A DNA stretch of 64,000 nt from Nemertoderma westbladi (lineage: Eukaryota > Animalia > Xenacoelomorpha). The stretch covers positions 1 to 64,000 of the forward strand of contig JAUCBJ010004655.1 of the NCBI GenBank assembly GCA_032718475.1, written 5' to 3'. The translations under genes and the position numbers were made by a program. Shown one piece after another: positions 6,411 to 52,000 of the stretch. Positions within the stretch are counted from its first letter, which is position 1; the number at the start of each line of letters is the position of its first letter. The notes under the pieces were generated by a model. It was not told where the DNA came from and made no database searches. It worked only from the letters and a program-made list of their open reading frames with translations.

Positions 6411-6904
6411 CATGGTTTATATACATGGTTTACTGTAAAATTGATTTTCTTATTTGTTTTTACAGTCGTTCTTGGGAATTCAGTATTTTAATGTTAATTC
6501 GATTTACCGATCTGTTAATAATTAAATATTGCTATATATGTAATAGTAAAATAAATTGGATGAGGGGCGCCATATTAAATAAAAACAACTACAATTAATC
6601 ATGAAATATTGGAAAATCTCAATCTATAGTAAACCTGAATGATTTACCTAAAAAAATTGAATGATTATTGATTGTAGACCTATGGAAAAACGTCAATTAA
6701 AATATATTTTTAAAAAGAAAAAAATTTTTAAAAAAATTTTTTTTTTTTCACCATTCCAACTATTCATTGTCCGACAAGATGTGCAGATACATCCTGTCGG
6801 ACAAGATCCAATATCAATTTGGGATCGTTCACGTGAACAGAGTGGAAAAGTCTGAGTATCTATTTTATATCTTCTGTATATATTTTAGTCGACATTTTTT
6901 TTAG

Positions 6905-13000: not shown

Positions 13001-16000
13001 ACTTCAATCTGGTTGTTGGTAGTATCAAATAACTGGGGACAGTTGTAGCAGTCTGGTTGATGTTAGTATCAAATAATTCAGACTCATAAAGACTGGAGAC
13101 TTCAATCTGGTTGTTGGTAGTATCAAATAACTGGGGACAGTAGCAGTCTGGTTGTTGTTAGTATTAAATAATTCAGACTCATAAAGACTGGAGACTTCAA
13201 TCTGGTTGTTGGTAGTATCAAATAACTGGGGACATTAGCAGTCTGGTTGTTGTTAGTATCAAATAATTTATACTGATAAAGACTGGAGACTTCAATCTGG
13301 TTGTGGGGGTAGTATCAAATAACTGGGGACAGTAGCAGTCTGGTTGTGGGTTGTATCAAATAACTGGGGACAATACTGTAGCAGTCTGGTTGTTGTTAGT
13401 ATCAAATAATTCAGACTCATAAAGACTAGAGACTTCAATCTGGTTGTGGGGGTAGTATCAAATAACTGGGGACAGTAGCAGTCTGGTTGTGGGTTGTATC
13501 AAATAATTCAGACTCATAAAGACTGGAGACTTCAATCTGGTTGTTGGTAGTATAAAATAACTGGGGACAGTTGTAGCAGTCTGGTTGTTGTTAGTATCAA
13601 ATAATTCAGACTCATAAAGACTGGAGACTTCAATCTGGTTGTTGGTAGTATAAAATAACTGGGGACAGTAGCAGTCTGGTTGTTGTTAGTATCAAATAAT
13701 TCAGACTCATAAAGACTGGAGACTTCAATCTGGTTGTTGGTAGTATAAAATAACTGGGGACAGTAGCAGTCTGGTTGTTGTTAGTATCAAATAATTCAGA
13801 CTCATAAAGACTAGAGACTTCAATATGGTTTATTGGTAGGCTCAAATAATTCAAACGCAAAACTACTGGAGACAGCAAGGTCTGGTTGTGGGTTGAATCA
13901 AATTATTCAGACTCACTGGAGGTAGCATATTGGTTGTGGGAGTAGCAGTCTGCAAAATTTCTGTCGTAGTTCTGACTATGTCCTCTAGTTCTACAAGATG
14001 TATCGCGCTTGAAACATAATTCAGGGTTTAAGTCAACCAAACCGTTTATTATTTTGTACACAAATGAAATTGCAGTCGTTCAATATAAGATAGACTTTGG
14101 TCTAAATTGCTTCGAAGTAATCGACGTGTAAAAATCTTTGCACCGATTCTAGGCGGTCACTTTGCCCTAAATAAGGTCTGCTGTTGGAGTGGGGGTTCCA
14201 AACGCAACGGTCTCGGTCTTGCATAAACTTTATATGCAGTTACCAAAGGGATAGGTCTAATTAAGGACAATACTGTTGTATTGATGCCCGTTTAACTATA
14301 GTTTTAATATATTCGCCAAAATTCAATTTGTTATTAATAATTACACCGAGGTCCCTATGATTAATAACGTTACTACTGCATTAATTGTATTTTCTGCGAC
14401 AAGTGTCGGTCGACCGATACTTAGTACTTTACATTTCTTTTTAGCATCTCTCAACTGCCACCCTTTGGACCACTTGACGAATATATCAATAGTTTCCTGC
14501 AGTAGAAAACGTTCAGTAATGTTTGAAAATTTAAAAATATTTTCGCATCACTGGAAATATTATCTGTTAGGTCTCCTACATACATTCCAAAGTGTCCGGT
14601 CCGGTCCGGTCCGGTCCGGTCCGGTCCGGTCCGGTCCGGTCCGGTCCGGTCCGGTCCGGTCCGGTCCGGTCCGGTCCGGTCCGGTCCGGTCCGGTCCGGT
14701 CCGGTCCGGTCCGGTCCGGTCCGGTCCGGTCCGGTCCGGTCCGGTCCGGTCCGGTCCGGTCCGGTCCGGTCCGGTCCGGTGGTCCGGATAATGTTCCTTG
14801 GGCTATTCCCGATTATACTATTTGATATTTTGAAAAAGAGTTGCCCACCTTTACCCGTTGCACCCTATCATTGAAAAATTTCGTGTACCGATTAATGACA
14901 CCGGCACAGCACGCGCCACACGGTACGTACCGATAACGGCTTATGCAGCTTGTGTTGTCTGCATCTGTGATGAATGACTTACTGTTAGGCCTACCTAACT
15001 TAATCATACTGAAAGTATAGTTACTTTATTTCACGCCGTGAGATATACAGTAGGCCCCTAGCCCATATCATATCATTGAGTTTACTTGTTATCGCGGCGT
15101 ATTTTACGCCGACTTGAAAATAAAGATTTATATATTTTTCAGAGATTGAATGTGGGGAAAATATGGAATACGAGGTTTGTCACCTTCCCTGTCAATCGTC
15201 GTGCACTAACATTGAACCGAGTTGTAGTGAGGAGAGTTGCGTAGAAGGTTGTTTTTGCGCCGCCGGTAAGACCTACGACCAAGGTGAATGTGTAGATGCC
15301 CAGCAATGCGGTTGTCGCCATACCAACGGTAATTACTACTCGGTGAGTCTATCATAAAACAAATCAAGAAGATATTGTGTACGGGAAATTTTTGTTTCTC
15401 TTACAGTAGCTTTTATATGCAAATTAGTATATTAGACCTCTACTACCACAGAATATGATTCAAATATTATATTATAATACTGAATTTCAATGGTGTCAGG
15501 CGGCAGAGGTTTATCTGTTCACCAATTTTGTTCTGTATTATTCTAAATTAAAGCCCGATGAAATATGTAAAGGCAAATGTACGCACAATTGATTCTACTG
15601 TAGGCCTACCACACGTACCTACACCTATACACACTTCCTTCCGAACAGCCAAGTAAACTTAGAATCATGGATAATGATACCAATTCCGATAGATAGGGGA
15701 ATGCTAATTAAAAACAAGGATTCACGGTTCATATACTAATCGATAGATTGGGGCGGCAATAATGTGAACGATACCTCTAGGAACGCAGGCAAAAATATCC
15801 CTGATGATAAAGAACTTAAATCACACTTTGAAGGTTTACTAAACCCGGCGGCTGATGCAGTGAAGATTTCGAATCTTCTCACCACATACTTCATTTGGAT
15901 GACCAGTTCAGTGCGAAGGAACTTGCAGAATCTATGGCGAATATAGAGAACTCTAAATCATATTGATACAGTTTGGGGTAGGGCGGGTTGACCTCGGTGT

Positions 16001-28000: not shown

Positions 28001-31000
28001 AGGGCGGATCCTTTAGGCGGATCCTAAAGGGCCTTGCATCCTAAATGAGTACTGGAGTTTCCTCTGGGGAGTAAAGTTCTGGGCGAACCGCACTGGAAAT
28101 AGGTCGTCAGACTTCGTGCGTAATCCCTGGCCTAACGGCCGAAGAAAATTTACTTTACTTTACTTTTATGTATGTAGTATAAATCTCATTGTAAACTACC
28201 TGATTGGGATATTCTTATCCTTTCATGCAGCCCTGATGCGGAGTGCGCCAATGTAGATGGATCCTACTCTTGTACGTGCAACGAAGGTTACCGTGGAAAC
28301 GGCCGACAGTGTGTGGACATTGACGAGTGTGTGGAGCGAATTCACGACTGCGATCCACATGCTGACTGTACCAACACCCCCGGCGATCATTATTGTGAAT
28401 GTCATGATGGTTACCAAGGCAATGGTGAAAATTGCATATGTTAGTATTGGAGAAATAACACCATCACACACAGCGGGACGTCGTCGTAAAAATTTTGCGG
28501 CTTGAAATTTTTTTAACAACCAAACAGTTGCTGTGGCAAGCCAGGTGTTCAGCAGTTTTAATTAATTTATTGTAATTAACGTTTACAATAATTTATGTTT
28601 GCAGTGGAGAGTACATGTAACCCTGGCGACTGCAACCAAGCTGCCCGATGTGATCTCGTAAACGACGAACCGCAATGTGTTTGTCTTCCCGGCTATACCG
28701 GAGATGGCAATGACTGTGATGGTAAGTAAACGGCCCACGCAATGACTGTGATGGTAAGTAAACGGCCCACACAATGACTGTGATGGTAAGTAAACAGCCC
28801 CCGCAATGACTGTGATGGTAAGTAAACAGCCCCCGCAATGACTGTGATGGTAAGTAAACGGCCCACGCAATGACTGTGATGGTAGGTAAACGGCCCACGC
28901 AATGACTGTGATGGTAAGTAAATGGCCCACGCAATGACTTACGGAAAGAGATGGCAATGACTGTGATGGTAAGTAAACGGCCCACGCAATGACTGTGATG
29001 GTAAGTAAACGGCCCACGCAATGACTGTGATGGTAAGTAAACGGCCCCCGCAATGACTTACGGAAAGAGATGGCAATGACTGTGATGGTAACTAAACCGC
29101 CCACGCAATGACTTACGGAAAGAGATGGCAATGACTGTGATGGTAAGTAAACGGCCCACGCAATGACTTACGGAAAGAGATGGCAATGACTGCGATGGTA
29201 AGTAAACGGCCCACGCAATGACTTACGGAAAGAGATGGCAATGACTGTGATGGTAAGTAAACGGCCCACGCAATGACTGTGATGGTAAGTAAACGGCCCC
29301 CGCAATGACTTACGGAAAGAGATGGCAATGACTGTGATGGTAAGTAAACGGCCCACGCAATGACTGTGATGGTAAGTAAACGGCCCCCGCAATGACTTAC
29401 GGAAAGAGATGGCAATGACTGTGATGGTAAGTAAACGGCCCACGCAATGACTGTGATGGTAAGTAAACGGCCCCCGCAATGACTTACGGAAAGAGATGGC
29501 AATGACTGTGATGGTAAGTAAACGGCCCACGCAATGACTGTGATGGTAAGTAAACCGCCCACGCAATGACTTACGGAAAGAGATGGCAATGACTGTGATG
29601 GTAAGTAAACGGCCCACGCAATGACTGTGATGGTAAGTAAACGGCCCCCGCAATGACTTACGGAAAGAGATGGCAATGACTGTGATGGTAAGTAAACGGC
29701 CCACGCAATGACTGTGATGGTAAGTAAACGGCCCACACAATGACTGTGATGGTAAGTAAACGGCCCACGCAATGACTGTGATGGTAAGTAAACGGCCCAC
29801 ACAATGACTTACGGAAAGAGATGGCAATGACTGTGATGGTAAGTAAACGGCCCACGCAATGACTGTGATGGTAAGTAAACGGCCCACACAATGACTGTGA
29901 TGGTAAGTAAACGGCCCCCGCAATGACTGTGATGGTAAGTAAACGGCCCACGCAATGACTGATGGTAAGTAAACGGCCCACGCAATGACTGTGATGGTAA
30001 GTAAACGGCCCACACAATGACTTACGGAAAGAGATGGCAATGACTGTGATGGTAAGTAAACGGCCCACGCAATGACTGTGATGGTAAGTAAACGGCCCAC
30101 ACAATGACTGTGATGGTAAGTAAACGGCCCCCGCAATGACTGTGATGGTAAGTAAACGGCCCACGCAATGACTGTGATGGTAAGTAAACGGCCCACACAA
30201 TGACTGTGATGGTAAGTAAACGGCCCACACAATGACTTACGGAAAGAGATGGCAATGATTGTGATGGTAAGTAAATGGCCCACACAATGACTTACGGAAA
30301 GAGATGGCAATGACTGTGATGGTAAGTAAACGGCCCACACAATGACTGATGGTAAGTAAACGGCCCACGCAATGACTGATGGTAAGTAAACGGCCCACGC
30401 AATGACTGTGATGGTAAGTAAACGGCCCACACAATGACTTACGGAAAGAGATGGCAATGACTGTGATGGTAAGTAAACAGCCCCCGCAATGACTGTGATG
30501 GTAAGTAAACGGCCCACGCAATGACTGTGATGGTAGGTAAACGGCCCACGCAATGACTGTGATGGTAAGTAAATGGCCCACGCAATGACTTACGGAAAGA
30601 GATGGCAATGACTGTGATGGTAAGTAAACAGCCCCCGCAATGACTGTGATGGTAAGTAAACGGCCCACGCAATGACTGTGATGGTAGGTAAACGGCCCAC
30701 GCAATGACTGTGATGGTAAGTAAATGGCCCACGCAATGACTTACGGAAAGAGATGGCAATGACTGTGATGGTAAGTAAACGGCCCACGCAATGACTGTGA
30801 TGGTAAGTAAACGGCCCACGCAATGACTGTGATGGTAAGTAAACGGCCCCCGCAATGACTTACGGAAAGAGATGGCAATGACTGTGATGGTAACTAAACC
30901 GCCCACGCAATGACTTACGGAAAGAGATGGCAATGACTGTGATGGTAAGTAAACGGCCCACGCAATGACTTACGGAAAGAGATGGCAATGACTGCGATGG

Positions 31001-34000
31001 TAAGTAAACGGCCCACGCAATGACTTACGGAAAGAGATGGCAATGACTGTGATGGTAAGTAAACGGCCCACGCAATGACTGTGATGGTAAGTAAACGGCC
31101 CCCGCAATGACTTACGGAAAGAGATGGCAATGACTGTGATGGTAAGTAAACGGCCCACGCAATGACTGTGATGGTAAGTAAACGGCCCCCGCAATGACTT
31201 ACGGAAAGAGATGGCAATGACTGTGATGGTAAGTAAACGGCCCACGCAATGACTGTGATGGTAAGTAAACGGCCCCCGCAATGACTTACGGAAAGAGATG
31301 GCAATGACTGTGATGGTAAGTAAACGGCCCACGCAATGACTGTGATGGTAAGTAAACCGCCCACGCAATGACTTACGGAAAGAGATGGCAATGACTGTGA
31401 TGGTAAGTAAACGGCCCACGCAATGACTGTGATGGTAAGTAAACGGCCCCCGCAATGACTTACGGAAAGAGATGGCAATGACTGTGATGGTAAGTAAACG
31501 GCCCACGCAATGACTGTGATGGTAAGTAAACGGCCCACACAATGACTGTGATGGTAAGTAAACGGCCCACGCAATGACTGTGATGGTAAGTAAACGGCCC
31601 ACACAATGACTTACGGAAAGAGATGGCAATGACTGTGATGGTAAGTAAACGGCCCACGCAATGACTGTGATGGTAAGTAAACGGCCCACACAATGACTGT
31701 GATGGTAAGTAAACGGCCCCCGCAATGACTGTGATGGTAAGTAAACGGCCCACGCAATGACTGATGGTAAGTAAACGGCCCACGCAATGACTGTGATGGT
31801 AAGTAAACGGCCCACACAATGACTTACGGAAAGAGATGGCAATGACTGTGATGGTAAGTAAACGGCCCACGCAATGACTGTGATGGTAAGTAAACGGCCC
31901 ACACAATGACTGTGATGGTAAGTAAACGGCCCCCGCAATGACTGTGATGGTAAGTAAACGGCCCACGCAATGACTGTGATGGTAAGTAAACGGCCCACAC
32001 AATGACTGTGATGGTAAGTAAACGGCCCACACAATGACTTACGGAAAGAGATGGCAATGATTGTGATGGTAAGTAAATGGCCCACACAATGACTTACGGA
32101 AAGAGATGGCAATGACTGTGATGGTAAGTAAACGGCCCACACAATGACTGATGGTAAGTAAACGGCCCACGCAATGACTGTGATGGTAAGTAAATGGCCC
32201 AAGCAATGACTGTGATGGTAAGTAAACGGCCCACACAATGACTTACGGAAAGAGATGGCAATGACTGTGATGGTAAGTAAACGGCCCACACAATGACTTA
32301 CGGAAAGAGATGGCAATGACTGTGATGGTAAGTAAACGGCCCACACAATGACTGATGGTAAGTAAACGGCCCACGCAATGACTGTGATGGTAAGTAAATG
32401 GCCCAAGCAATGACTGTGATGGTAAGTAAACGGCCCACACAATGACTTACGGAAAGAGATGGCAATGACTGTGATGGTAAGTAAACGGCCCACACAATGA
32501 CTTACGGAAAGAGATGGCAATGACTGTGATGGTAAGTAAACGGCCCACACAATGACTGATGGTAAGTAAACGGCGCACGCAATGACTGTGATGGTAAGTA
32601 AATGGCCCAAGCAATGACTGTGATGGTAAGTAAACGGCCCACACAATGACTTACGGAAAGAGATGGCAATGACTGTGATGGTAAGTAAACCGCCCACACA
32701 ATGACTGATGGTAAGTAAACGGCCCACGCAATGACTTACGGAAAGAGATGGCAATGACTGTGATGGTAAGTAAACCGCCCACGCAATGACTTACGGAAAG
32801 AGATGGCAATGACTGTGATGGTAAGTAAACGGCCCACGCAATGACTGTGATGGTAAGTAAACGGCCCCCGCAATGACTTACGGAAAGAGATGAATGACTG
32901 TGATGGTAAGTAAACGGCCCACGCAATGACTGTGATGGTAAGTAAACGGCCCACACAATGACTGTGATGGTAAGTAAACGGCCCACGCAATGACTGTGAT
33001 GGTAAGTAAACGGCCCACACAATGACTTACGGAAAGAGATGGCAATGACTGTGATGGTAAGTAAACGGCCCACGCAATGACTGTGATGGTAAGTAAACGG
33101 CCCACACAATGACTGTGATGGTAAGTAAACGGCCCCCGCAATGACTGTGATGGTAAGTAAACGGCCCACGCAATGACTGATGGTAAGTAAACGGCCCACG
33201 CAATGACTGTGATGGTAAGTAAACGGCCCACACAATGACTTACGGAAAGAGATGGCAATGACTGTGATGGTAAGTAAACGGCCCACGCAATGACTGTGAT
33301 GGTAAGTAAACGGCCCACACAATGACTGTGATGGTAAGTAAACGGCCCCCGCAATGACTGTGATGGTAAGTAAACGGCCCACGCAATGACTGTGATGGTA
33401 AGTAAACGGCCCACACAATGACTGTGATGGTAAGTAAACGGCCCACACAATGACTTACGGAAAGAGATTGCAATGATTGTGATGGTAAGTAAATGGCCCA
33501 CACAATGACTTACGGAAAGAGATGGCAATGACTGTGATGGTAAGTAAACGGCCCACACAATGACTGATGGTAAGTAAACGGCCCACGCAATGACTGTGAT
33601 GGTAAGTAAATGGCCCAAGCAATGACTGTGATGGTAAGTAAACGGCCCACACAATGACTTACGGAAAGAGATGGCAATGACTGTGATGGTAAGTAAACGG
33701 CCCACACAATGACTTACGGAAAGAGATGGCAATGACTGTGATGGTAAGTAAACGGCCCACACAATGACTGATGGTAAGTAAACGGCCCACGCAATGACTG
33801 TGATGGTAAGTAAATGGCCCAAGCAATGACTGTGATGGTAAGTAAACGGCCCACACAATGACTTACGGAAAGAGATGGCAATGACTGTGATGGTAAGTAA
33901 ACGGCCCACACAATGACTGATGGTAAGTAAACGGCCCACGCAATGACTGTGATGGTAAGTAAATGGCCCAAGCAATGACTGTGATGGTAAGTAAACGGCC

Positions 34001-37000
34001 CACACAATGACTTACGGAAAGAGATGGCAATGACTGTGATGGTAAGTAAACCGCCCACACAATGACTGATGGTAAGTAAACGGCCCACGCAATGACTGTG
34101 ATGGTAAGTAAATGGCCCAAGCAATGACTGTGATGGTAAGTAAACGGCCCACACAATGACTTACGGAAAGAGATGGCAATGACTGTGATGTTAAGTAAAC
34201 GGCCCACACAATGACTTACGGAAAGAGATGGCAATGACTGTGATGGTAAGTAAACGGCCCACACAATGACTTACGGAAAGAGATGGCAATGACTGTGATG
34301 GTAAGTAAACGGCCCACACAATGACTTACGGAAAGAGATGGCAATGACTGTGATGGTAAGTAAACGGCCCACACAATGACTTACGGAAAGAGATGGCAAT
34401 GACTGTGATGGTAAGTAAACGGCCCACACAATGACTGTGATGGTAAGTAAACGGCCCACACAATGACTTACGGAAAGAGATGGCAATGACTGTGATGGTA
34501 AGTAAACGGCCCACACAATGACTTACGGAAAGAGATGGCAATGACTGTGATGGTAAGTAAACGGCCCACACAATGACTGTGATGGTAAGTAAACGGCCCA
34601 CACAATGACTTACGGAAAGATATGGCAATGACTGTGATGGTAAGTAAACGGCCCACACAATGACTTACGGAAAGAGATGGCAATGACTGTGATGGTAAGT
34701 AAACGGCCCACACCTTGACTTACGGAAAGAGATGGCAATGACTGTGATGGTAAGTAAACGGCCCACACAATGACTTACGGAAAGAGATGGCAATGACTGT
34801 GATGGTAAGTAAACGGCCCACGCAATGACTGTGATGGTAAGTAAACGGCCCACGCAATGACTGTGATGGTAAGTAAACGGCCCACACAATGACTTACGGA
34901 AAGAGATGGCAATGACTGTGATGGTAAGTAAACGGCCCACACAATGACTTACGGAAAGAGATGGCAATGACTGTGATGGTAAGTAAACGGCCCACACAAT
35001 GACTTACGGAAAGAGATGGCAATGACTGTGATGGTAAGTAAACGGCCCACGCAATGACTGTGATGGTAAGTAAACGGCCCACGCAATGACTTACGGAAAG
35101 AGATGGCAATGACTGATGGTAAGAAAACGGCCCACACAATGACTGATGGTAAGTAAACGGCCCACGCAATGACTTACGGAAAGAGATGGCAATGACTGTG
35201 ATGGTAAGTAAACGGCCCACGCAATGACTGTGATGGTAAGTAAACCGCCCACGCAATGACTGTGATGGTAAGTAAACGGCCCACACAATGACTTACGGAA
35301 AGAGATGGCAATGACTGTGATGGTAAGTAAACGGCCCACACAATGACTGTGATGGTAAGTAAACGGCCCACGCAATGACTTACGGAAAGAGATGGCAATG
35401 ACTGTGATGGTAAGTAAACGGCCCACACAATGACTGTGATGGTAAGTAAACGGCCCACACAATGACTGTGATGGTAAGTAAACGGCCCACACAATGACTT
35501 ACGGAAAGAGATGGCAATGACTGTGATGGTAAGTAAACGGCCCACACAATGACTTACGGAAAGAGATGGCAATGACTGTGATGGTAAGTAAACGGCCCAC
35601 ACAATGACTTACGGAAAGAGATGGCAATGACTGTGATGGTAAGTAAACGGCCCACACAATGACTTACGGAAAGAGATGGCAATGACTGTGATGGTAAGTA
35701 AACGGCCCACGCAATGACTGTGATGGTAAGTAAACGGCCCACGCAATGACTTACGGAAAGAGATGGCAATGACTGTGATGGTAAGTAAACGGCCCACACA
35801 ATGACTGTGATGGTAAGTAAACGGCCCACACAATGACTTACGGAAAGAGATGGCAATGACTGTGATGGTAAGTAAACGGCCCACACAATGACTTACGGAA
35901 AGAGATGGCAATGACTGTGATGGTAAGTAAACGGCCCACGCAATGACTGTGATGGTAAGTAAACGGCCCACACAATGACTTACGGAAAGAGATGGCAATG
36001 ACTGTGATGGTAAGTAAACGGCCCACACAATGACTTACGGAAAGAGATGGCAATGACTGTGATGGTAAGTAAACGGCCCACACAATGACTTACGGAAAGA
36101 GATGGCAATGACTGTGATGGTAAGTAAACGGCCCACGCAATGACTGTGATGGTAAGTAAACGGCCCACGCAATGACTTACGGAAAGAGTTGGCAATGACT
36201 GTGATGGTAAGTAAACGGCCCACACAATGACTTACGGAAAACGGCTGAAACTGAAAATTTGGGATTTCGTAGTTTCGTAATTAGGGTTATTTCATGTTCC
36301 ATTCCGCTCACCATTCCAATAAACAGTTCACATAAAATGTGAACATGGAAATACCTCCTGATGATGTGTTGTATGTCTGGAATTAACTTACTTACCGCCG
36401 TAAAAATACAAAAATTATATCTTAATGTCAATTAGTAGTAATTAGTTTATTACTCATTACAACTAATTACTTTTTTCCTAATTTAACCAGACGTCGACGA
36501 ATGTGAGGAGCTGGGGGACTCTGCGTGCCACGCTAGGGCCACCTGCAGCAACAAGCCGGGTGGGCACGATTGCGAATGCAACGACGGTCTCCTAGGCGAC
36601 GGGGTCAACAACTGCGACGAGCCGGACGCGTGCGCGACGCACTCAGGTTGCGATGCCAACGCCCACTGTGTAAACGGCGCTAACGGAGCACGTTGCGAGT
36701 GTAACACTGGTTATATTGGTGACGGGACAGAATGCGAGGACATTAACGAGTGTCTTGAGGAGGATTGTGGAGACAATGCCATTTGTATCAATAAACCCGG
36801 ATTTTATATCTGTGTGTGCGAAGAAGGGTCTACTAGGAATGGTAAGTAAAAGTAGGCAGGGGACTGAATGGTTTCCATAAGGTGAGCAGGGGCTATTACT
36901 GTAGGGCCCATGATCGTCGTGTGTTCAGATAATACAATATTAGTGCTGTACTAACGTGTACTTTCGTAAACATTCACAAATATTAAGTACTAGTTTCTAA

Positions 37001-40000
37001 CTTGAGGTTAATGAGGGTTCTCTATAGTTGTACATGGTTCTAAATCGATGTTGTTTACTTAAATTAAGCATATGGTTTATCACTCTATACTCTTACTCGA
37101 TTTATATGGTTTCTCACACGATGTCCAATGCATGGTTCCCGTTTTTAGATCTACATGATTTCACTTGATGTACCCTTGATTTTTTTAAATTTAGTTTTCA
37201 ATCTTCAAATATGATCCCCATTGTGGTATATTATGTGTTATTTTAAAATATTATCTTATGTTCAGGGTTACAGGTTACAACTGTTATTGTAAAGTTTGGA
37301 AATAGTAAAAAAAATTAAATTAAATAATATTATAATATTAATATTATACAGACGAATTTTGCTATATCCATCTTAGGACCACTGATATGTTAAATATCGG
37401 TTTGACACAATCCAGATACAGTAAGCGGATATAAACTGACTACTAAAACCCCAATCTAAAAGAAAGGTGACCAATCGATCCGACAAACTATCGCCTCGTC
37501 GACATTTCCAGTACACATCCAAACCCAATTACAGTTGAGAAACTCTTGTGTAACAATTTGAACTGAATCTAAAATCAAACAATTTTTTAGCATCACATTA
37601 ATTCAGTTTGGTTTCACGATATTAGTTGTAAGGAAACTAACTACATACGTGTTCAGCCGGTCCCAAGTGTTAATATTTACACGAACGAGCGGAGCGAGTG
37701 AGTGAAATATTGAAACGAGGCACCGAATGTTTATCACCCGGGTGAAAAATACAAAAAAATAGAAATAATTGCCGCAATAATAAGTCACCGTAGGAATATC
37801 CTTATAATTAATTAAATATACCTGCTAATTGCTGTTTTTACAAACAACATTCATTGAGTAATAAATTACTCATTACGACGCTTATTCCCATTGATTATCA
37901 GATGGGGCCTCATTGAATTCCTTGACATTGGATTTCTAGGAGAGTTGTGTGTGGACGATGATGAATGCTCCAACGGATCCAACGATTGCTCACCCAATGC
38001 TATCTGCTCCAACCTAGACGGGGGCGGCTACACATGTAACTGTAAACCTGGCTTCGAAGGCAATGGAAGAATTTGTGAAGGTAATATTATTTAATTATAT
38101 AAACTTTACATTACATAAAAATTATAGATAAAGGAAAGACATTATTGAGTTAGACCACATGAAGAATACCTTCATTTACTACAGTAACTTAATCTAAAAT
38201 CACAATTTCAGAACTTTGAACATGAGAAAACCAAAACAGGAAATGTAAGCTGCACGATATTAAACATCTACAAGTTTTTCTAAGTTCACCCTCTCATTAC
38301 ATTTTTTAATTTAAATGTCTTGTTTTTATATTGTAATAATACGATAAAGCTATCTAATCAATAAATGCTTACAGACATTGACGAATGTTCCCCTAGCAAC
38401 GGGTCGCCAAATTCATGCGGTTCCCTAGGGCCGGGAGGGAAATGCTCGAACACCGCTGGTTCGTTTGTTTGTGAGTGCGAACCACCGCTGGTACTGAAAG
38501 ATGGTTCGTGTTCGCCACCAGATGGGCCGAACTCAGTGGTACCATGTGAGGTTAGTTTGTGAGTGCGAACCACCGCTGGTACTGAAAGATGGTTCGTGTT
38601 CGCCACCAGCTGGGCCGAACTCAGTGGTACCATGTGAGGTTAGTTTGTGAGTGCGAACCACCGCTGGTACTGAAAGATGGTTCGTGTTCGCCACCAGCTG
38701 GGCCGAACTCAGTGGTACCATGTGAGGTTAGTTTGTGAGTGCGAACCACCGCTGGTACTGAAAGATGGTTCGTGTTCGCCACCAGATGGGCCGAACTCAG
38801 TGGTACCATGTGAGGTTAGTTTGTGAGTGCGAACCACCGCTGGTACTGAAAGATGGTTCGTGTTCGCCACCAGCTGGGCCGAACTCAGTGGTACCATGTG
38901 AGGTTAGTTTGTGAGTGCGAACCACCGCTGGTACTGAAAGATGGTTCATGTTCGCCACCAGCTGGGCCGAACTCAGTGGTACCATGTGAGGTTAGTTTGT
39001 GAGTGCGAACCACCGCTGGTACTGAAAGATGGTTCGTGTTCGCCACCAGCTGGGCCGAACTCAGTGGTACCATGTGAGGTTAGTTTGTGAGTGCGAACCA
39101 CCGCTGGTACTGAAAGATGGTTCGTGTTCGCCACCAGCTGGGCCGAACTCAGTGGTACCATGTGAGGTTAGTTTGTGAGTGCAACCACCGCTGGTACTGA
39201 AAGATGGTTCGTGTTCGCCACCAGCTGGGCCGAACTCAGTGGTACCATGTGAGGTTAGTTTGTGAGTGCGAACCACCGCTGGTACTGAAAGATGGTTCGT
39301 GTTCGCCAACAGCTGGGCCGAACTCAGTGGTACCATGTGAGGTTAGTTTGTGAGTGCGAACCACCGCTGGTACTGAAAGATGGTTCGTGTTCGCCACCAG
39401 CTGGGCCGAACTCAGTGGTACCATGTGAGGTTAGTTTGTGAGTGTGAACCACCGCTGGTACTGAAAGATGGTTCGTGTTCGCGTTCGTGGTGCCATGTCA
39501 GTTAGTTGGATGAACGCTGTGGTACCATATGGATTTAGGTGGGTGGACACTGCGTTACCATGTGGATTTAGTTGGGTGAATGCTGTGGTACCATGTGGAT
39601 TTAGTTGGGTGAACGCCGTGGTACCCTGTGGATTTAGTTGGGTGAACGCTGTGGTACCATGTGGATTTAGTTGGGTGAACGCCGTGGTACCCTGTGGATT
39701 TAGTTGGGTGAATGCTGTGGTACCATGTGGATTTAGTTGGGTGAACGCCGTGGTACCCTGTGGATTTAGTTGGGTGAACGCTGTGGTACCATGTGGATTT
39801 AGTTGGATGAACACTGTGGTACCATGTGGATTTAGTTGGGTGAACACTATGGTACCATGTGGATTTAGTTGGGTGAACACTGTGGTACCATGTGGATTTA
39901 GTTGGATGAACGCTGTGGTACCATGTGGATTTAGTTGGGTGAATACTGTGGTGCCATGTCAGTTAGTTAGATGAACGCTGTAGTACCATGTGGATTTAGT

Positions 40001-43000
40001 TGGATGAACGCTGTGGTACCATGTGGATTTAGTTGGGTGAATAATGTGGTGCCATGTCAGTTAGTTGGATGAACGCTGTGGTACCATATGGATTTAGTTG
40101 GGTGAACACTGTGTTACCATGTGGATTTAGTTGGGTGAATGCTGTGGTACCATGTGGATTTAGTTGGGTGAACGCCGTGGTACCCTGTGGATTTAGTTGG
40201 GTGAATGCTGTGGTACCATGTGTATTTAGTTGGGTGAACACTATGGTACCATGTGGATTTAGTTGGGTGAACACTGTGGTACCATGTGGATTTAGTTGGA
40301 TGAACGCTGTTGTACCATGTGGATTTAGTTGGGTGAATACTGTGGTGCCATGTCAGTTAGTTGGAGACCGCTGTGGTACCATGTGGATTTAGTTGGGTGA
40401 ACACTGTGGTACCTTGTGGATTTAGTTGGATGAACGCTGTGGTACCATGTCAGTTAGTTGGATGAACGCTGTGGTACCATATGGATTTAGTTGGGTGAAC
40501 ACTGTGTTACCATGTGGATTTAGTTGGGTGAATGCTGTGGTACCATGTGGATTTAGTTGGATCAACGCTGTGGTACCATGTGGATTTAGTTGGGTGAACA
40601 CTGTGGTACCATGTGGATTTAGTTGGATGAACGCTGTGGTACCATATGGATTTAGTTGGGTGAACACTGTGGTACCATGTGGATTTAGTTGGATGAACGC
40701 TTTGGTACCATGTGGATTTAGTTGGGTGAACACTATGGTACCATGTCGATTTAGTTGGGTGAATACTGTGGTGCCAGTCAATTAGTTGGATGAACGCTGT
40801 GGTACCATATGGATTTAGTTGGGTGAACACTGTGTTACCATGTGGATTTAGTTGGGTGAATGCTGTGGTACCATGTGGATTTAGTTGGATCAACGCTGTG
40901 GTACCATGTGGATTTAGTTGGGTGAACACTATGGTACCATGTGGATTTAGTTGGGTGAATACTGTGGTGCCATGTCAGTTAGTTGGATGAACGCTGTGGT
41001 ACCATATGGATTTAGTTGGGTGAACACTGTGTTACCATGTGGATTTAGTTGGGTGAATGCTGTGGTACCATGTGGATTTAGTTGGATCAACGCTGTGGTA
41101 CCATGTGGATTTAGTTGGGTGAACACTATGGTACCATGTGGATTTAGTTGGGTGAACACTGTGGTACCATGTGGATTTAGTTGCGTGAACACTATGGTAC
41201 CATGTGGATTTAGTTGGGTGAACACTGTGGTACCATGTGGATTTAGTTGGATGAATGCTGTGGTACCATGTGGATTTAGTTGGGTGAACACTATGGTACC
41301 TTGTGGAGTTAGTTGGGTGAACACTATGGTACCATGGGGATTTAGTTGGGTGAACACTGTGGTACCATGTGGATTTAGTTGGATGAACGCTGTGGTACCA
41401 TGTGGATTTAGTTGGGTGAACACTATGGTACCTTGTGGAGTTAGTTGGGTGAACACTATGGTACCATGGGGATTTAGTTGGATGAACGCTGTGGTACCAT
41501 GTGGATTTAGTTGGGTGAATAATGTGGTGCCATGTCAGTTAGTTGGATGAACGCTGTGGTACCATATGGATTTAGTTGGGTGAACACTGTGGTACCATGT
41601 GGATTTAGTTGGATGAACGCTTTGGTACCATGTGGATTTAGTTGGGTGAACACTATGGTACCATGTGAATTTAGTTCGGTGAACACTGTGTTACCATGTT
41701 GATTTAGTTGGGTGAATGCTGTGGTACCATGTGGTTTTAGTTGGGTGAACACTATGGTACCATGTGGATTTAGTTGGGTGAAAACTGTGGTACCATGTGG
41801 AATTAGTTTGGTGAACGCCGTGGTACCCTGTGGATTTAATTGGGTGAACGGCGAACGCCGTGGTACCCTGTGGATTTAGTTGGGTGAACGCCGTGGTACC
41901 CTGTGGATTTAGTTGGGTGAAAGCTGTGGAACCATGTCAGTTAGTTGGGTGAACGCCGTGGTACCCTGTGGATTTAGTTGGGTGAACACTGTGTTACCAT
42001 GTGGATTTAGTTGGATGAACGCTGTGGTACCATTTGGATTTAGTTGGGTGAATACTGTGGTGCCATGTCAGTTAGTTGGATGAACGCTGTGGTACCATAT
42101 GGATTTAGTTGGGCGAACACTGTGTTACCATGTGGATTTAGTTGGGTGAATGCTGTGGTACCATGTGGATTTAGTTGGATCAACGCTGTGGTACCATGTG
42201 GATTTAGTTGGGTGAACACTATGGTACCATGTGGATTTAGTTGGGTGAACACTGTGGTACCATGGGGATTTAGTTGGATGAACGTTGTGGTACCATGTGG
42301 ATTTAGTTGGGTGAACACTATGGTACCTTGTGGAGTTAGTTGGGTGAACACTATGGTACCATGGGGATTTAGTTGGGTGAACACTGTGGTACCATGTGGA
42401 TTTAGTTGGATGAACGCTGTGGTACCATATGGATTTAGTTGGGTGAACACTGTGGTACCATGTGGATTTAGTTGGATGAACGCTTTGGTACCATGTGGAT
42501 TTAGTTGGGTGAACACTATGGTACCATGTGGATTTAGTTCGGTGAGCACTGTGTTACCATGTTGATTTAGTTGGGTGAATGCTGTGGTACCATGTGGTTT
42601 TAGTTGGGTGAACACTATGGTACCATGTGGATTTAGTTGGGTGAAAGCTGTGGTACCATGTGGATTTAGTTTGGTGAACGCCGTGGTACCATGTCAGTTA
42701 GTTGGATGAACGCTGTGGTACCATGTGGATTTAGTTGAGTGAACACTGTGGTGCCATGTGGATTTAGTTGGGTGAACGCCGTGGTACCCTGTGGATTTAA
42801 TTGGGTGAACGACGAACGCCGTGGTACCCTGTGGATTTAGTTGGGTGAACGCCGTGGTACCCTGTGGATTTAGTTGGGTGAAAGCTGTGGAACCATGTCA
42901 GTTAGTTGGGTGAACGCCGTGGTACCATTTCAGTTAGTTGGATGAAAGCTGTGGTACCCTGTGGATTTAGTTGGGTGAACGCCGTGGTACCCTGTGGATT

Positions 43001-46000
43001 TAGTTGGGTGAAAGCTGTGGAACCATGTCAGTTAGTTGGGTGAACGCCGTGGTACCATGTCAGTTAGTTGGATGAACGCTGTGGTACCCTGTGGATTTAG
43101 TTGGGTGAACGCCGTGGTACCCTGTGGATTTAGTTGGGTGAACGCTGTGGAACCATGTCAATTAGTTGGATGAACGCCGTGGTACCATGTCAGTTAGTTA
43201 GATGAACGCCGTGGTACCGTGTGGATTTAGTTGGGTGAACACTGTGTTACCATGTGGATTTAGTTGGGTGAACGCTGTGGTACCATGTGGATTTAGTTGG
43301 GTGAACACTGTGGTACTATGTGGATTTAGTTGGGTGAACACCGTGTTACCATGTTGATTTAGTTGGGTGAATGCTGTGGTACCATGTGGTTTTAGTTGGG
43401 TGAACACTGTGGTACCATGTGGATTTAGTTGGGTGAATGCTGTGGTACCATGTGGATTTAGTTAGGTGAACGCTGTGGTACCCTGTGAATTTAGTTGGGT
43501 GAAAGCTGTGGAACCATGACAGTTAGTTGGGTGAACGCCGTGGTACCCTGTGGATTTAGTTGGGTGAACACTGTAGTACCATGTGGATTTAGTTGAGTGA
43601 ATGCTGTGGTACCATGCGGATTTAGTTGGGTGAACGCTTTGGTACCATGTGGATTTAGTTCAGTGAACGCTATGGTACCTTGTGGATTTAGTTGGGTGAA
43701 AGCTTTGGTACCATGTGGATTTAATTGAGTGAACACTGTGGTACCATGTGGATTTAGTTGGGTGAAAGCTGTGGTACCATGTGAATTTAGTTGGGTGAAC
43801 GCTGTGGTACCATGTGGATTTAGTTGGGTGAACGCTGTTACCATGTGGATTTAGTTGGGTGAACGCTGTGGTACCATGTGGATTTAGTTGGGTGAAGACT
43901 GTTACCATGTGGATTTAGTTGGGTGAACGCTGTTGTACCTTGTGGATTTAGTTGGGTGAAAGCTGTGGTACCATGTCAGTTAGTTGGGTGAAAGCCGTGG
44001 TACCCTGTGGATTTAGTTGGGTGAACTCTGTGTTACCATGTGGATTTAGTTGGGTGAACGCTGTGGTACCATGTGGATTTAGTTGGGTGAACGCTGTTAC
44101 CATGTGGATTTAGTTGGGTGAACGCTGTGGTACCATGTGGATTTAGTTGGGTGAACGCTGTTACCATGTGGATTTAGTTGGGTGAACGCTGTGATACCTT
44201 GTGGATTTAGTTGGGTGAAAGCTGTGGTACCATGTCAGTTAGTTGGGTGAAAGCCGTGGTACCCTGTGGATTTAGTTGGGTGAACACTGTGTTACCATGT
44301 GGATTTAGTTGGGTGAACGCTGTGGTACCCTGTGGATTTAGTTGGGTGAACACTGTGTTACCATGTGGATTTAGTTGGGTGAAAGCTTTGGTACCATGTG
44401 GATTTAGATGGGTGAACGCCGTGGTACCATGTGGATTTAGTTGAGTGAACACTGTGGTACCATGTGGATTTAGTTGGGGGAAAGCTTTGGTACCATGTGG
44501 ATTTAGTTGGGTGAAAGCTTTGGTACCATGTGGATTTAGTTGGGTGAACACTGTGTTACCATGTGGATTTAGTTGGGTGAACACCATGGTACCATGTGGA
44601 TTTAGTTGGGTGAACACTGTGGTACCTTGTGGATTTAGTTGGGTGAACACTGTGGTACCATGTGGATTTAGTTGGGTGAACACTGTGGTACCTTGTGGAT
44701 TTAGTTGGGTGAACACTGTGGTACCATATGGATTTAGTTGGGTGAACACTGTGGTAACTTGTGGATTTAGTTGGGTGAACACTATGGTACCATGTGGATT
44801 TAGTTGGGTGAACAATGTGATACCTTGTGGATTTAGTTGGGTGAACACTGTGGTACCATATGGATTTAGTTGGGTGAACACTGTGGTACCTTGTGGATTT
44901 AATTGGGTGAACACTGTGGTACCATGTGGATTTAGTTGGGTGAAAGCTTTGGTACCATGTGGATTTAGTTGGGTGAACACTGTGGTACCATGTGGATTTA
45001 GTTGGGTGATCACTGTGGTACCTTGTGGATTTAGTTGGGTGAACACTGTGGTACCTTGTGGATTTAGTTGGGTGAACACTATGGTACCATGTGGATTTAG
45101 TTGGGTGAACACTGTGCTACCTTGTGGATTTAGTTGGGTGAACACTGTGGTACCATATGGATTTAGTTGGGTGAACACTGTGTTACCATGTGGATTTAGT
45201 TGGGTGAAAGCTTTGGTACCATGTGGATTTAGATGGGTGAACGCCGTGGTACCATGTGGATTTAGTTGAGTGAACACTGTGGTACCATGTGGATTTAGTT
45301 GGGTGAAAGCTTTGGTACCATGCGGATTTAGTTGGGTGAACACTGTGGTACCTTGTGGATTTAGTTGGGTGAACACTGTGGTGCCATGTGGATTTAGTTG
45401 GGTGAACACTATGGTACCTTGTGGAGTTAGTTGGGTGAATACTGTGGTACCATGTCAGTTAGTTGGATGAACGCTGTGGTACCATATGGATTTAGTTGGG
45501 TAAACACTGTGTTACCATTTGGATTTAGTTGGGTAAACACTGTGGTACCATGTGGATTTAGTTGGGTGAACACTATGGTACCTTGTGGAGTTAGTTGGGT
45601 GAATACTGTGGTACCATGTCAGTTAGTTGGATGAACGCTGTGGTACCATATGGATTTAGTTGGGTAAACACTGTGTTACCATTTGGATTTAGTTGGGTAA
45701 ACACTGTGGTACCATGTGGATTTAGTTGGGTGAACACTATGGTACCTTGTGGAGTTAGTTGGGTGAATACTGTGGTACCATGTCAGTTAGTTGGATGAAC
45801 GCTGTGGTACCATATGGATTTAGTTGGGTAAACACTGTGTTACCATGTGGATTTAGTTGGGCGAACACTGTGTTACCATGTGGATTTAGTTGGGTGAATG
45901 CTGTGGTACCATGTGGATTTAGTTGGATCAACGCTGTGGTACCATGTGGATTTAGTTGGGTGAACACTATGGTACCATGTGGATTTAGTTGGGTGAACAC

Positions 46001-49000
46001 TGTGGTACCATGGGGATTTAGTTGGATGAACGTTGTGGTACCATGTGGATTTAGTTGGGTGAACACTATGGTACCTTGTGGAGTTAGTTGGGTGAACACT
46101 ATGGTACCATGGGGATTTAGTTGGGTGAACACTGTGGTACCATGTGGATTTAGTTGGATGAACGCTGTGGTACCATATGGATTTAGTTGGGTGAACACTG
46201 TGGTACCATGTGGATTTAGTTGGATGAACGCTTTGGTACCATGTGGATTTAGTTGGGTGAACACTATGGTACCATGTGGATTTAGTTCGGTGAGCACTGT
46301 GTTACCATGTTGATTTAGTTGGGTGAATGCTGTGGTACCATGTGGTTTTAGTTGGGTGAACACTATGGTACCATGTGGATTTAGTTGGGTGAAAGCTGTG
46401 GTACCATGTGGATTTAGTTTGGTGAACGCCGTGGTACCATGTCAGTTAGTTGGATGAACGCTGTGGTACCATGTGGATTTAGTTGAGTGAACACTGTGGT
46501 GCCATGTGGATTTAGTTGGGTGAACGCCGTGGTACCCTGTGGATTTAATTGGGTGAACGACGAACGCCGTGGTACCCTGTGGATTTAGTTGGGTGAACGC
46601 CGTGGTACCCTGTGGATTTAGTTGGGTGAAAGCTGTGGAACCATGTCAGTTAGTTGGGTGAACGCCGTGGTACCATTTCAGTTAGTTGGATGAAAGCTGT
46701 GGTACCCTGTGGATTTAGTTGGGTGAACGCCGTGGTACCCTGTGGATTTAGTTGGGTGAAAGCTGTGGAACCATGTCAGTTAGTTGGGTGAACGCCGTGG
46801 TACCATGTCAGTTAGTTGGATGAACGCTGTGGTACCCTGTGGATTTAGTTGGGTGAACGCCGTGGTACCCTGTGGATTTAGTTGGGTGAACGCTGTGGAA
46901 CCATGTCAATTAGTTGGATGAACGCCGTGGTACCATGTCAGTTAGTTAGATGAACGCCGTGGTACCGTGTGGATTTAGTTGGGTGAACACTGTGTTACCA
47001 TGTGGATTTAGTTGGGTGAACGCTGTGGTACCATGTGGATTTAGTTGGGTGAACACTGTGGTACTATGTGGATTTAGTTGGGTGAACACCGTGTTACCAT
47101 GTTGATTTAGTTGGGTGAATGCTGTGGTACCATGTGGTTTTAGTTGGGTGAACACTGTGGTACCATGTGGATTTAGTTGGGTGAATGCTGTGGTACCATG
47201 TGGATTTAGTTAGGTGAACGCTGTGGTACCCTGTGAATTTAGTTGGGTGAAAGCTGTGGAACCATGACAGTTAGTTGGGTGAACGCCGTGGTACCCTGTG
47301 GATTTAGTTGGGTGAACACTGTAGTACCATGTGGATTTAGTTGAGTGAATGCTGTGGTACCATGTGGATTTAGTTGGGTGAACGCTTTGGTACCATGTGG
47401 ATTTAGTTCAGTGAACGCTATGGTACCTTGTGGATTTAGTTGGGTGAAAGCTTTGGTACCATGTGGATTTAATTGAGTGAACACTGTGGTACCATGTGGA
47501 TTTAGTTGGGTGAAAGCTGTGGTACCATGTGAATTTAGTTGGGTGAACGCTGTGGTACCATGTGGATTTAGTTGGGTGAACGCTGTTACCATGTGGATTT
47601 AGTTGGGTGAACGCTGTGGTACCATGTGGATTTAGTTGGGTGAAGACTGTTACCATGTGGATTTAGTTGGGTGAACGCTGTTGTACCTTGTGGATTTAGT
47701 TGGGTGAAAGCTGTGGTACCATGTCAGTTAGTTGGGTGAAAGCCGTGGTACCCTGTGGATTTAGTTGGGTGAACTCTGTGTTACCATGTGGATTTAGTTG
47801 GGTGAACGCTGTGGTACCATGTGGATTTAGTTGGGTGAACGCTGTGGTACCATGTGGATTTAGTTGGGTGAACGCTGTTACCATGTGGATTTAGTTGGGT
47901 GAACGCTGTGGTACCATGTGGATTTAGTTGGGTGAACGCTGTGGTACCATATGGATTTAGTTGGGTGAACGCTGTGGTACCATGTGGATTTAGTTGGGTG
48001 AACGCTGTTACCATGTGGATTTAGTTGGGTGAACGCTGTGGTACCATGTGGATTTAGTTGGGTGAACGCTGTTACCATGTGGATTTAGTTGGGTGAACGC
48101 TGTGATACCTTGTGGATTTAGTTGGGTGAAAGCTGTGGTACCATGTCAGTTAGTTGGGTGAAAGCCGTGGTACCCTGTGGATTTAGTTGGGTGAACACTG
48201 TGTTACCATGTGGATTTAGTTGGGTGAACGCTGTGGTACCCTGTGGATTTAGTTGGGTGAACACTGTGTTACCATGTGGATTTAGTTGGGTGAAAGCTTT
48301 GGTACCATGTGGATTTAGATGGGTGAACGCCGTGGTACCATGTGGATTTAGTTGAGTGAACACTGTGGTACCATGTGGATTTAGTTGGGGGAAAGCTTTG
48401 GTACCATGTGGATTTAGTTGGGTGAAAGCTTTGGTACCATGTGGATTTAGTTGGGTGAACACTGTGTTACCATGTGGATTTAGTTGGGTGAACACCATGG
48501 TACCATGTGGATTTAGTTGGGTGAACACTGTGGTACCTTGTGGATTTAGTTGGGTGAACACTGTGGTACCATGTGGATTTAGTTGGGTGAACACTGTGGT
48601 ACCTTGTGGATTTAGTTGGGTGAACACTGTGGTACCATATGGATTTAGTTGGGTGAACACTGTGGTAACTTGTGGATTTAGTTGGGTGAACACTATGGTA
48701 CCATGTGGATTTAGTTGGGTGAACAATGTGATACCTTGTGGATTTAGTTGGGTGAACACTGTGGTACCATATGGATTTAGTTGGGTGAACACTGTGGTAC
48801 CTTGTGGATTTAATTGGGTGAACACTGTGGTACCATGTGGATTTAGTTGGGTGAAAGCTTTGGTACCATGTGGATTTAGTTGGGTGAACACTGTGGTACC
48901 ATGTGGATTTAGTTGGGTGATCACTGTGGTACCTTGTGGATTTAGTTGGGTGAACACTGTGGTACCTTGTGGATTTAGTTGGGTGAACACTATGGTACCA

Positions 49001-52000
49001 TGTGGATTTAGTTGGGTGAACACTGTGCTACCTTGTGGATTTAGTTGGGTGAACACTGTGGTACCATATGGATTTAGTTGGGTGAACACTGTGTTACCAT
49101 GTGGATTTAGTTGGGTGAAAGCTTTGGTACCATGTGGATTTAGATGGGTGAACGCCGTGGTACCATGTGGATTTAGTTGAGTGAACACTGTGGTACCATG
49201 TGGATTTAGTTGGGTGAAAGCTTTGGTACCATGCGGATTTAGTTGGGTGAACACTGTGGTACCTTGTGGATTTAGTTGGGTGAACACTGTGGTGCCATGT
49301 GGATTTAGTTGGGTGAACACTATGGTACCTTGTGGAGTTAGTTGGGTGAATACTGTGGTACCATGTCAGTTAGTTGGATGAACGCTGTGGTACCATATGG
49401 ATTTAGTTGGGTAAACACTGTGTTACCATTTGGATTTAGTTGGGTAAACACTGTGGTACCATGTGGATTTAGTTGGGTGAACACTATGGTACCTTGTGGA
49501 GTTAGTTGGGTGAATACTGTGGTACCATGTCAGTTAGTTGGATGAACGCTGTGGTACCATATGGATTTAGTTGGGTAAACACTGTGTTACCATTTGGATT
49601 TAGTTGGGTAAACACTGTGGTACCATGTGGATTTAGTTGGGTGAACACTATGGTACCTTGTGGAGTTAGTTGGGTGAATACTGTGGTACCATGTCAGTTA
49701 GTTGGATGAACGCTGTGGTACCATATGGATTTAGTTGGGTAAACACTGTGTTACCATGTGGATTTAGTTGGGTAAACACTGTGATACCATGTGGATTTAG
49801 TTGGGTGAACACTGTGGTACCATGTGGATTTAGTTGGGTGAACACTATGGTACCTTGTGGAGTTAGTTGGGTGAATACTGTGGTACCATGTCAGTTAGTT
49901 GGATGAACGCTGTGGTACCATATGGATTTAGTTGGGTAAACACTGTGTTACCATTTGGATTTAGTTGGGTAAACACTGTGGTACCATGTGGATTTAGTTG
50001 GGTGAACACTATGGTACCTTGTGAAGTTAGTTGGGTGAATACTGTGGTACCGTGTCAGTTAGTTGGATGAACGCTGTGGTACCATATGGATTTAGTTGGG
50101 TGAACACTGTGTTACCATGTGGATTTAGTTGGGTAAACACTATGGTACCTTGTGGAGTTAGTTGGGTGAATACTGTGGTACCATGTCAGTTAGTTGGATG
50201 AACGCTGTGGTACCATATGGATTTAGTTGGGTAAACACTGTGTTACCATTTGGATTTAGTTGGGTAAACACTGTGGTGCCATGTGGATTTAGTTGGGTAA
50301 ACACTATGGTACCTTGTGGAGTTAGTTGGGTGAATACTGTGGTACCATGTCAGTTAGTTGGATGAACGCAATGGTACCATATGGATTTAGTTGGGTAACC
50401 ACTATGGTACCATGTGTATTTAGTTGGGTGAACGCTGTGGTAGCATGCGTGAGGTTATTTGGGTGAACAATAGGTGGCATATCTTTCGCGGGTAGGACTA
50501 CATAATTGTTTTGCATTGCATTTTTGTAGCCTGAAGATGAATGCGCTGATGATGCTGAGTGCCGACTAACCGGGAGCGGCGGAAGAGTTTGTCGATGTTT
50601 GTCGGGATTCAGTGGAAATGGAAAGAGCTGTACAAGTTAGTCTTAGGAATTTATCAAGAAATTAAACTCAATATAAAATTTGTCTTATTTTATTACCAAC
50701 TTATCTCAATCCAACTGTAATTTAATTTAATTCACTATTCTAATTGTCCTACTTATTTAATCTCTGCTTATCTTGCAGACATCAATGAATGTTTGGATGG
50801 CTCAGCGAGATGCGATGAGTCAAATGGTAATTGTATCGATACAGACGGGAGTTACGAATGCGAATGTCGGGAAGGTTACACTGGTAGTGGGTTTAATTGC
50901 GAACGTAAGTAATACTGTAATTGTTCGAAATATTAAAAGCTTGTGGATTGTTTGTGAGACATTAAACCGAACCGAATCAATTAGTTACATTATTAATGTA
51001 TTTACGTTCCCTTTAACTTGCGACCGTCGGTATTGTTACATTGATTATGAGGAAGGGTGTGTTTGATTCAGATATTATGTGATGTAAATTGTGTAGGATT
51101 TAGACTCTAAGGTATGAAGAATGTCTCACTTTGTCCTTTTATGACGCCACAATCTTGTATATATTATATTATATTATAGCGATGTGCCGACCTGGAGTTT
51201 GTCGTCATAAACAGACATGCTCTGTCGTAAACAACGCGGCAGTTTGTGAGTGTGTCTGTCAGGACCCGCATTGTGAACCTCTACCAGGGGAAGTCTGTGG
51301 GTCTGACGGTAACACGTATCCTAGCAACGCAGACCTCTTCGAAACATCGTGTCGATTGCCCTCGGAGGAACCAAGATTGACAGTCAGTTACTTCGGAGCC
51401 TGCGAAGGTGAGTGACTCATTAATTATGTTTCTGTAATCATAATTGAACAGTCTGATCCTCTTTGTCTGTCAACAGCCTTTCTAAACACCATCCCCATGG
51501 CTCCCCTGTCACCAGCCAACCAAATACTATCCTTGATCTTTGACTGCCCATCACCAGACTACCAAATACCATTTTTTGCTGTGACACCTCTAGATGGCTC
51601 CCGTATATATTACTGTAAGCATATGCCTACAATTTACTAAACAATACATTCGTTAATTAACAACAGATGAGTGTGATGGAGTTACGTGCCGAGATGGGAC
51701 TAGCTGTGAGGTTGTGGATGGATTAGCGAACTGCGTATGCGATCCTTGTACACCCGAGTCGTACGACAGCGGACTTGTATGCGCGCAGCACCATCAGTTC
51801 GAATCGGAATGCGGTCTACATATATACAACTGTGCGAGCAGTAGTCAGCTCGTTGTCACTAATCCAGGGCCTTGCCCGCAACGTTAGTCATAATTTATAT
51901 ATAAACTTTTTTTCACTAATTTAATTTCATTGTCTCAGATATAAACTAAAAAAATTATAAATTGTAATATTACCACTAATCTTTATTGTAAAGTAAAAGT

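Follow-up and report, generated by a model that had tools for sequence, protein, structure and literature searches.

Tandem arrays whose first unit spans an exon-intron boundary have a close precedent in human F7. As described in the parts of that report on which we draw (Borensztajn et al. 2006, PMC1557585), intron 7 of F7 carries a 37-bp variable number tandem repeat of 5–9 copies, the first unit of which bridges the boundary, and the identical donors downstream are left unused through 5'-to-3' scanning. These pseudo-sites are reported to become functional once the first donor is lost. The same passages list further boundary minisatellites in 6-16, CBS (intron 13), lamin B2 (100 bp) and PDGF (intron 4, 81 bp), with 10–25 copies, and mention that two proximal pseudo-sites are also used in 6-16 and CBS. 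A related class, OVERMEGA, is outlined in the available portion of a preprint (bioRxiv 10.1101/2021.07.19.452908) as megasatellites overlapping exon-intron junctions, with units of at least 90 bp that yield repeated exons. Within the literature covered, from which subscription papers are mostly absent, the F7 work was the only direct study found, and neither stacked arrays nor donor decay in such arrays was encountered. Here we describe a 12-kb intron in a 64,000-nt stretch of Nemertoderma westbladi contig JAUCBJ010004655.1 (the window), in which two arrays of this kind lie side by side behind a single exon.

The window contains most of one animal gene on the + strand, with a large, cysteine-rich product. 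Its coding exon at 38375..38550 is followed by an intron of 11,979 nt (38551..50529, + strand). The original prediction placed two adjoining arrays here, and both were found where it put them, an 88-bp array at 38463–39482 and a 33-bp array at 39487–50469. The locus belongs to a known class, the boundary minisatellite of the F7 intron 7 (IVS7) type, of which it is an extreme in size but otherwise ordinary example. We consider it probable that the arrays form one exon-intron boundary minisatellite system, in which one exon end was tandemly duplicated on two separate occasions, each duplication being bounded by microhomology. Of the two arrays the 33-mer is probably the earlier, and its loss of the donor GT probably goes back to a founder change that was neutral. 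In the only transcript-like contig, splicing uses the first donor.

Several features are shared with F7 as described in the cited passages. The first unit bridges an exon-intron boundary in a gene that is truly spliced (the first 88-mer copy is 38463–38550, and the 33-mer agrees with the junction at 23 of 28 positions), the donor is reiterated within the intron (10 exact copies in the 88-mer; weaker GT sites in 50 of 332 units of the 33-mer, plus its terminal unit), and the most upstream donor is used, here in one contig from one sample. Copy number varies in F7, whereas for this locus contig depth gives a hint only. Unlike F7, the locus stacks two unit lengths from one junction, and its copies number about 340 and extend over 12 kb; GT has been lost from most units of the longer array, and three introns of one invertebrate-type gene are affected. 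The 88-mer resembles the 100- and 81-bp units of lamin B2 and PDGF with their first-donor-only use; the passage cited describes no donor decay for these two genes or for 6-16 and CBS. As in OVERMEGA, so far as the preprint portion describes it, an exon-intron segment has been amplified and its intronic part then decays. Unlike OVERMEGA, the units here have no acceptor and stay intronic, and the spliced contig skips the whole array.

The 88-bp array and use of the first donor

The 88-bp array (38463..39482, + strand; 11.6 copies, 98% matches) has a unit made of 82 nt of exon and 6 nt of intron, bounded by a 6-of-7-nt microhomology between the exon and the start of the intron. Its first copy is the real exon end, after which come 10 intronic copies with an intact donor and a 53-nt partial copy. 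The earlier count of about 11 near-perfect copies with intact donors was borne out, the exact 9-nt donor having 11 occurrences, of which 10 are intronic and one is the real donor. The intronic copies differ from one another by about 1%. The array is present in a second sample (S2) too, at lower contig depth. At position 38522 the exon has an A, while 9 of the 10 full intronic copies have a C; the C form is also found in S2, so that in both samples one site distinguishes the exon from the amplified unit. Contig depth on the 88-mer versus unique sequence was 224 versus 23 in run X1, possibly the source (about 10x), 50 versus 22 in X2 and 41 versus 20 in X3 (about 2x in both). Contig depth is not copy number, and these values give a weak hint that 88-mer copy number varies between samples.

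Splicing was seen in a 2,606-nt contig from sample S3 (X4 record 25). This run was filed as 'DNA?', and because the contig skips six introns at GT..AG in the two stretches examined, it was taken as RNA-derived. The contig leaves the exon at 38550 and enters the next at 50530, a join seen from both sides, and therefore the 11,979-nt intron is real and is removed from its first donor. The same contig joins the exon end at 28721 to 36491, using the first donor of a sister array in this gene. The splicing evidence is one contig from one sample, and contigs drop rare forms and minor isoforms. Reading through past the real donor reaches a stop 10 nt on, at 38560, so that use of a distal donor would give a nonsense message. 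Sample S2 (runs X2 and X3) carries both arrays as well as the terminal unit of the 33-mer, and one X3 contig spans 50364–50957 with 13 differences, none of them listed in the donor core. The spliceosome would appear to pick the most upstream donor, as seen in the one contig and as the rule from F7 would have it, and because that donor is taken the copies downstream would be nearly free of selection. First-donor choice among repeated donors would in this way extend to an invertebrate-type gene, with 10 exact downstream copies in this array and 174 in the sister array.

Origin of the 33-bp array

The 33-bp array (39487–50469, + strand; 333.9 copies, 87% matches) includes 332 complete interior units at 39512..50429 (+ strand), which fall into 98 types and have a mean pairwise difference of 11.4%. 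Compared with the exon end and the six intron bases that follow, its consensus agrees at 23 of 28 positions. The best match elsewhere, in any phase and on both strands over 103,860 positions outside the locus, was 19 of 28. The original prediction had compared the array with a unit built from the exon end and the residual intron start and had counted 27 of 33 matches. The likeness stands but the count is 28 of 33, with five differing columns rather than six, and because the last 5 nt of that predicted unit come from the array's own last unit, these five positions are circular and the independent figure is 23 of 28. When the arrays were compared with 50 junctions of the gene, the best match of each was its own donor, at scores of 100 and 42 against shuffle maxima of 28 and 26, which agrees with the proposal that the same junction seeded both. 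Within the window the 33-mer unit was not found elsewhere. Like the 88-mer it is bounded by microhomology, in this case 4 nt shared by the exon and the start of the intron.

The last 9 nt of the exon at 38375..38550, whose 3' end seeds both arrays, contain the first cysteine of the EGF domain that follows. The idea that an existing repeat had been exonised was considered and ruled out, as the exon end supplies a required EGF cysteine. This EGF domain has six cysteines and is completed by the next exon; since its first cysteine lies in the stretch of exon that was copied, the direction is from exon to array.

At its distal end the array closes with a 35-nt terminal unit (50430..50464, + strand) that has an exon-type donor core and is also present in two S2 contigs. 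This unit keeps the exon's letters from -3 to +4, with its GT beginning at 50454, and has three private changes: one substitution, a 2-nt insertion and a change at +5. The residual intron (50454..50529, + strand) starts with this GT, contains the 4-nt microhomology that bounds the 33-mer, and ends at the acceptor used. It is 76 nt long, as had been calculated for an original intron of 76 bp, though as an ancestral length this figure is predicted from the terminal unit, and neither an allele nor an orthologue with so short an intron turned up in the data covered.

We suggest that slippage or unequal exchange at the 4-nt homology would have doubled 22 nt of exon and 11 nt of an intron of about 76 nt. 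An early unit would then have lost the G at -1, and in one of its descendants a base may have been inserted and the G at +1 replaced by T. By unit-level and block duplications this +1-changed lineage could have come to make up 84% of the array, the terminal unit escaping homogenisation. A higher-order duplication (42115..49740, + strand), in which 42115–45829 is repeated at 45863–49740 with 1 mismatch and 5 extra units, indicates that the array went on growing, unless this 3.7-kb near-exact block is a mis-assembly.

That same block could be taken to favor a different explanation, in which the likeness to the exon end is secondary and the 33-mer either belongs to a dispersed satellite or owes most of its array to faulty assembly. 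However, the exon-end match is far above background, the unit length is exact with respect to the microhomology, and the array and terminal unit recur in the second sample. Summed contig depth on the 33-mer unit was 8,066, 4,788 and 2,899 versus about 20 for unique sequence (4.7 on this flank in X1). Depth is not copy number, but at a few hundred times unique it points weakly to this one locus and not to a large dispersed satellite. Judged from the window and these contigs, a satellite or artefact origin is very improbable.

Order of the two layers

The 33-mer probably originated before the 88-mer, because the latter shows the present exon state at two exonic columns and is ten times less diverse (about 1% versus 11%). 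We envisage that a later 88-nt duplication of the same exon end expanded beside the exon. The earlier suggestion of a younger layer added on the exon-proximal side is supported as to age; the proximal position follows of necessity from the content of the unit, most of which is exon. The 88-mer does not pass directly into the 33-mer. Between them lies a scar (39471..39511, + strand) composed of a truncated 88-mer copy, a 7-nt local re-copy and a truncated unit of the 32-nt class. The twelfth 88-mer copy stops after 53 nt, and 39471–39477 recurs at 39483–39489, where it joins the truncated unit of the 33-mer array. No exon-type donor is left within the scar. A small deletion with local re-copying may have erased the old junction between the layers.

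The scar hides the order of the layers. A reverse sequence was also weighed; it starts from an old 88-nt duplication whose last, non-functional copy gave rise to the 33-mer, after which the 88-mer would have been homogenised with the exon again and have undergone a new expansion. The 88-mer depth of about 10x versus 2x unique between samples would suit this, as copy-number bottlenecks could reset diversity. However, the last partial 88-mer copy differs from its neighbors at only 1 of 53 nt, whereas the terminal 33-unit carries 3 changes of its own over about 30 nt. Furthermore, all 88-mer copies match the present exon state at the two exonic columns that differ in the 33-mer. We regard the reverse order as quite improbable and an earlier 33-mer as the better account. 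Judging from the 3.7-kb block of 33-mers duplicated with 1 mismatch, the layers are not strictly sequential.

Loss of GT in the 33-bp array

GT is absent in 282 of the 332 interior 33-mer units and kept in 50 (16 types), and a G at -1 is found in none of the 332. The older array has therefore mostly lost GT, as originally predicted, but of the two minority classes said to keep it, one has more likely regained it. These figures count copies, not events. Events were counted on 200 spanning trees of 96 types (331 units), built from 33-nt units that recombine. The +1 column had about 4.1 changes (4–5), rank 14 of 33, where the mean per column was 3.4. They comprise single G-to-T (underlying the majority class), G-to-A and T-to-A steps, together with one link to a 14-unit GT class; a unit outside the tree set may add a second G-to-A. 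No changes were placed in the +2, +3 and +4 columns, and the nine donor columns averaged 2.1 changes versus 3.9 elsewhere (p 0.068). It had been set out beforehand that GT loss no more frequent than change at other positions would speak against the original prediction, and within the array this is what the +1 and +2 columns show.

Copies per type numbered 3.1 for GT-bearing types versus 3.5 for those without GT. With this, and with no excess of donor change, the claim that donor-dead units were preferentially amplified or retained finds no support at unit level, leaving room only for a filter at the level of the founder. GT is present in 14 of the 34 units of the distal block, which was amplified as a five-unit repeat, versus 50 of 332 overall. 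The 14-unit GT class carries two derived markers, has no marker-free form and links to GT-less types in the spanning trees. Its markers also occur in GT-less units, 28 and 25 times singly and twice together, and the class looks more likely to be a regain or a recombinant than a survivor. On a matrix of the gene's own donors the surviving GT units score 7.2–9.8, the real donors scoring 2.7–11.8 (leave-one-out), and 4 of 25 real donors of the gene have the same +1..+5 without G at -1. As read from these sequences, GT loss was probably in the main one +1 substitution following the founding loss of the G at -1, a neutral founder change spread by array turnover.

A DNA hairpin drive was tried as a separate candidate and rejected, the folding energy of unit trimers and copy number giving Spearman coefficients of 0.03 and -0.05 (98 types).

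Two further arrays in the gene served as controls. The young one (28722..36232, + strand) stems from the exon ending at 28721 and consists of interspersed 32- and 55-bp units, each unit length bounded by its own microhomology; the collapsed intron is about 284 nt. GT is kept in 180 of its 181 copies, 174 copies are identical to the real 9-mer, and the array is 3.6% diverged from its own junction. The old one (10527..13849, + strand) has a 95-bp two-subunit repeat, is 27% diverged, and has GT at 25 of 68 sites, none of which has G at -1 as well. It was likely derived from the donor at 10449, its best match being its own donor (26 of 38, score 36, shuffle maximum 29). Both old arrays in the gene have a damaged donor core and both young arrays are intact. 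Intact downstream donors are tolerated, in 10 of 10 copies beside the exon and in 180 of 181 in the sister array. The three donor-derived arrays amount to 22.7 kb, 41% of the gene span, in 3 of 24 introns. The 11,979-nt intron illustrates one transposon-free route from a short intron to 12 kb.

A selective filter would share the same origin but would let only arrays with weak or dead donors grow and persist, as intact pseudo-donors would leak to a premature stop; it would act on the founding unit and not on each copy. In keeping with such a filter, array-specific changes cluster at -2..+1, no copy in either older array has an intact -1/+1/+2 core except the terminal unit, every distal donor would lead into nonsense (stops lie 10, 6 and 3 nt past the three donors), and two pseudo-sites are used in 6-16 and CBS according to the passage cited (PMC1557585). 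However, the probability of the core being hit by chance at this divergence is 0.38–0.46, with the other old array diverged by as much as 27%, and the clustering involves adjacent changes that are not independent, in two old arrays. The donor columns show no excess of change, GT-less units have no copy-number advantage, and one GT was likely regained. In addition, 174 perfect strong donors are tolerated over 7.5 kb, and the exon-nearest copies, expected to be the strongest competitors, are all intact. A filter therefore seems rather unlikely, and a neutral founder change is preferred.

Several points nevertheless weigh against the history we prefer. Diversity is all that speaks for the layer order, the junction that could have revealed it having been deleted. 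The array-specific high-frequency changes are all at -2, -1 and +1 if both exonic differences arose on the exon side, and the terminal unit does share the array state at these two differences. Taking array-specific changes only, the clustering has a nominal p of 0.015 when counted as three events and 0.068 as two; on the five-difference count, three changes in the nine-base donor give p 0.17 and in -3..+2 p 0.027. In the other old array, 10527–13849, G at -1 and GT occur together in 0 of 68 sites. The intact control arrays are young, and selection may so far have lacked the time to act on them. One contig cannot show rare use of distal donors, which nonsense decay would hide, and the event counts rest on spanning trees of recombining 33-nt units.

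A broader and rather doubtful extension is that genes of this animal repeatedly convert splice donors into kilobase-scale minisatellites and that such loci form an age series, in which as many as 180 intact donors persist in young arrays, all old arrays go back to founders with a crippled -1/+1/+2 core, and selection against cryptic donors decides unit survival. If so, this genome would offer a natural experiment on what pseudo-donors cost and on first-donor scanning outside mammals. Three arrays of different ages in one gene make selection on pseudo-donors testable given the genome sequence, and such selection, if real, would tie splicing fidelity to minisatellite survival.

The gene and its other repeats

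Twenty-three exons from 6905 to 52304, placed via a mechanical scan and coordinates, form, once joined, an open frame of 4,009 nt (1,336 aa, 176 Cys). Pfam matches were obtained in 8 of the 9 exons scanned (VWD, C8, EGF, Kazal_2, TSP1), and the ninth gave a cystine-knot lead only (score 0.93, family on 43% of cluster members). The coding exon at 38375..38550 (+ strand) has in translation an EGF-like domain plus linker, with Pfam EGF_CA below the cut-off, and is covered by the spliced contig (X4 record 25) with zero differences. The downstream exon at 50530..50635 (+ strand, phase 0) supplies the rest of the EGF domain (Pfam EGF_3, E=1.3e-9) and is also in the spliced contig. A protein search with the 38375..38550 exon found no orthologue, its 5 hits/23 candidates all being generic vertebrate LTBP EGF. 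Further downstream, a Kazal-like exon at 53742–53961 (220 nt) is out of frame with the next exon, owing to a single-base mistake in the assembly, to an allele that is broken or to an exon that was missed.

Intronic fragments at 22600–24800 and 55100–57400 have frames with stops and breaks that resemble reverse transcriptase and endonuclease of a non-LTR (long terminal repeat) retroelement. A tRNA-like sequence was noted by eye in an intron at 25090–25165. A short dispersed repeat lies at 37656–37727, and many contigs from other loci match it at high depth in all four runs.

The gene is unusually rich in tandem repeats, with further intronic arrays at 14594–14780 (5 bp), 15949–16574 (68 bp), 17686–18385 (11 bp) and 18476–19593 (30 bp). 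When tested, the 68-, 11- and 30-bp arrays gave no match to neighboring junctions. At 1–6418 is a 40-bp array of 160 copies, 98% alike, which continues past the window start and ends in a 9-nt echo of its unit; an exon lying before the window may have seeded it, which would make it the fourth array of junction origin.

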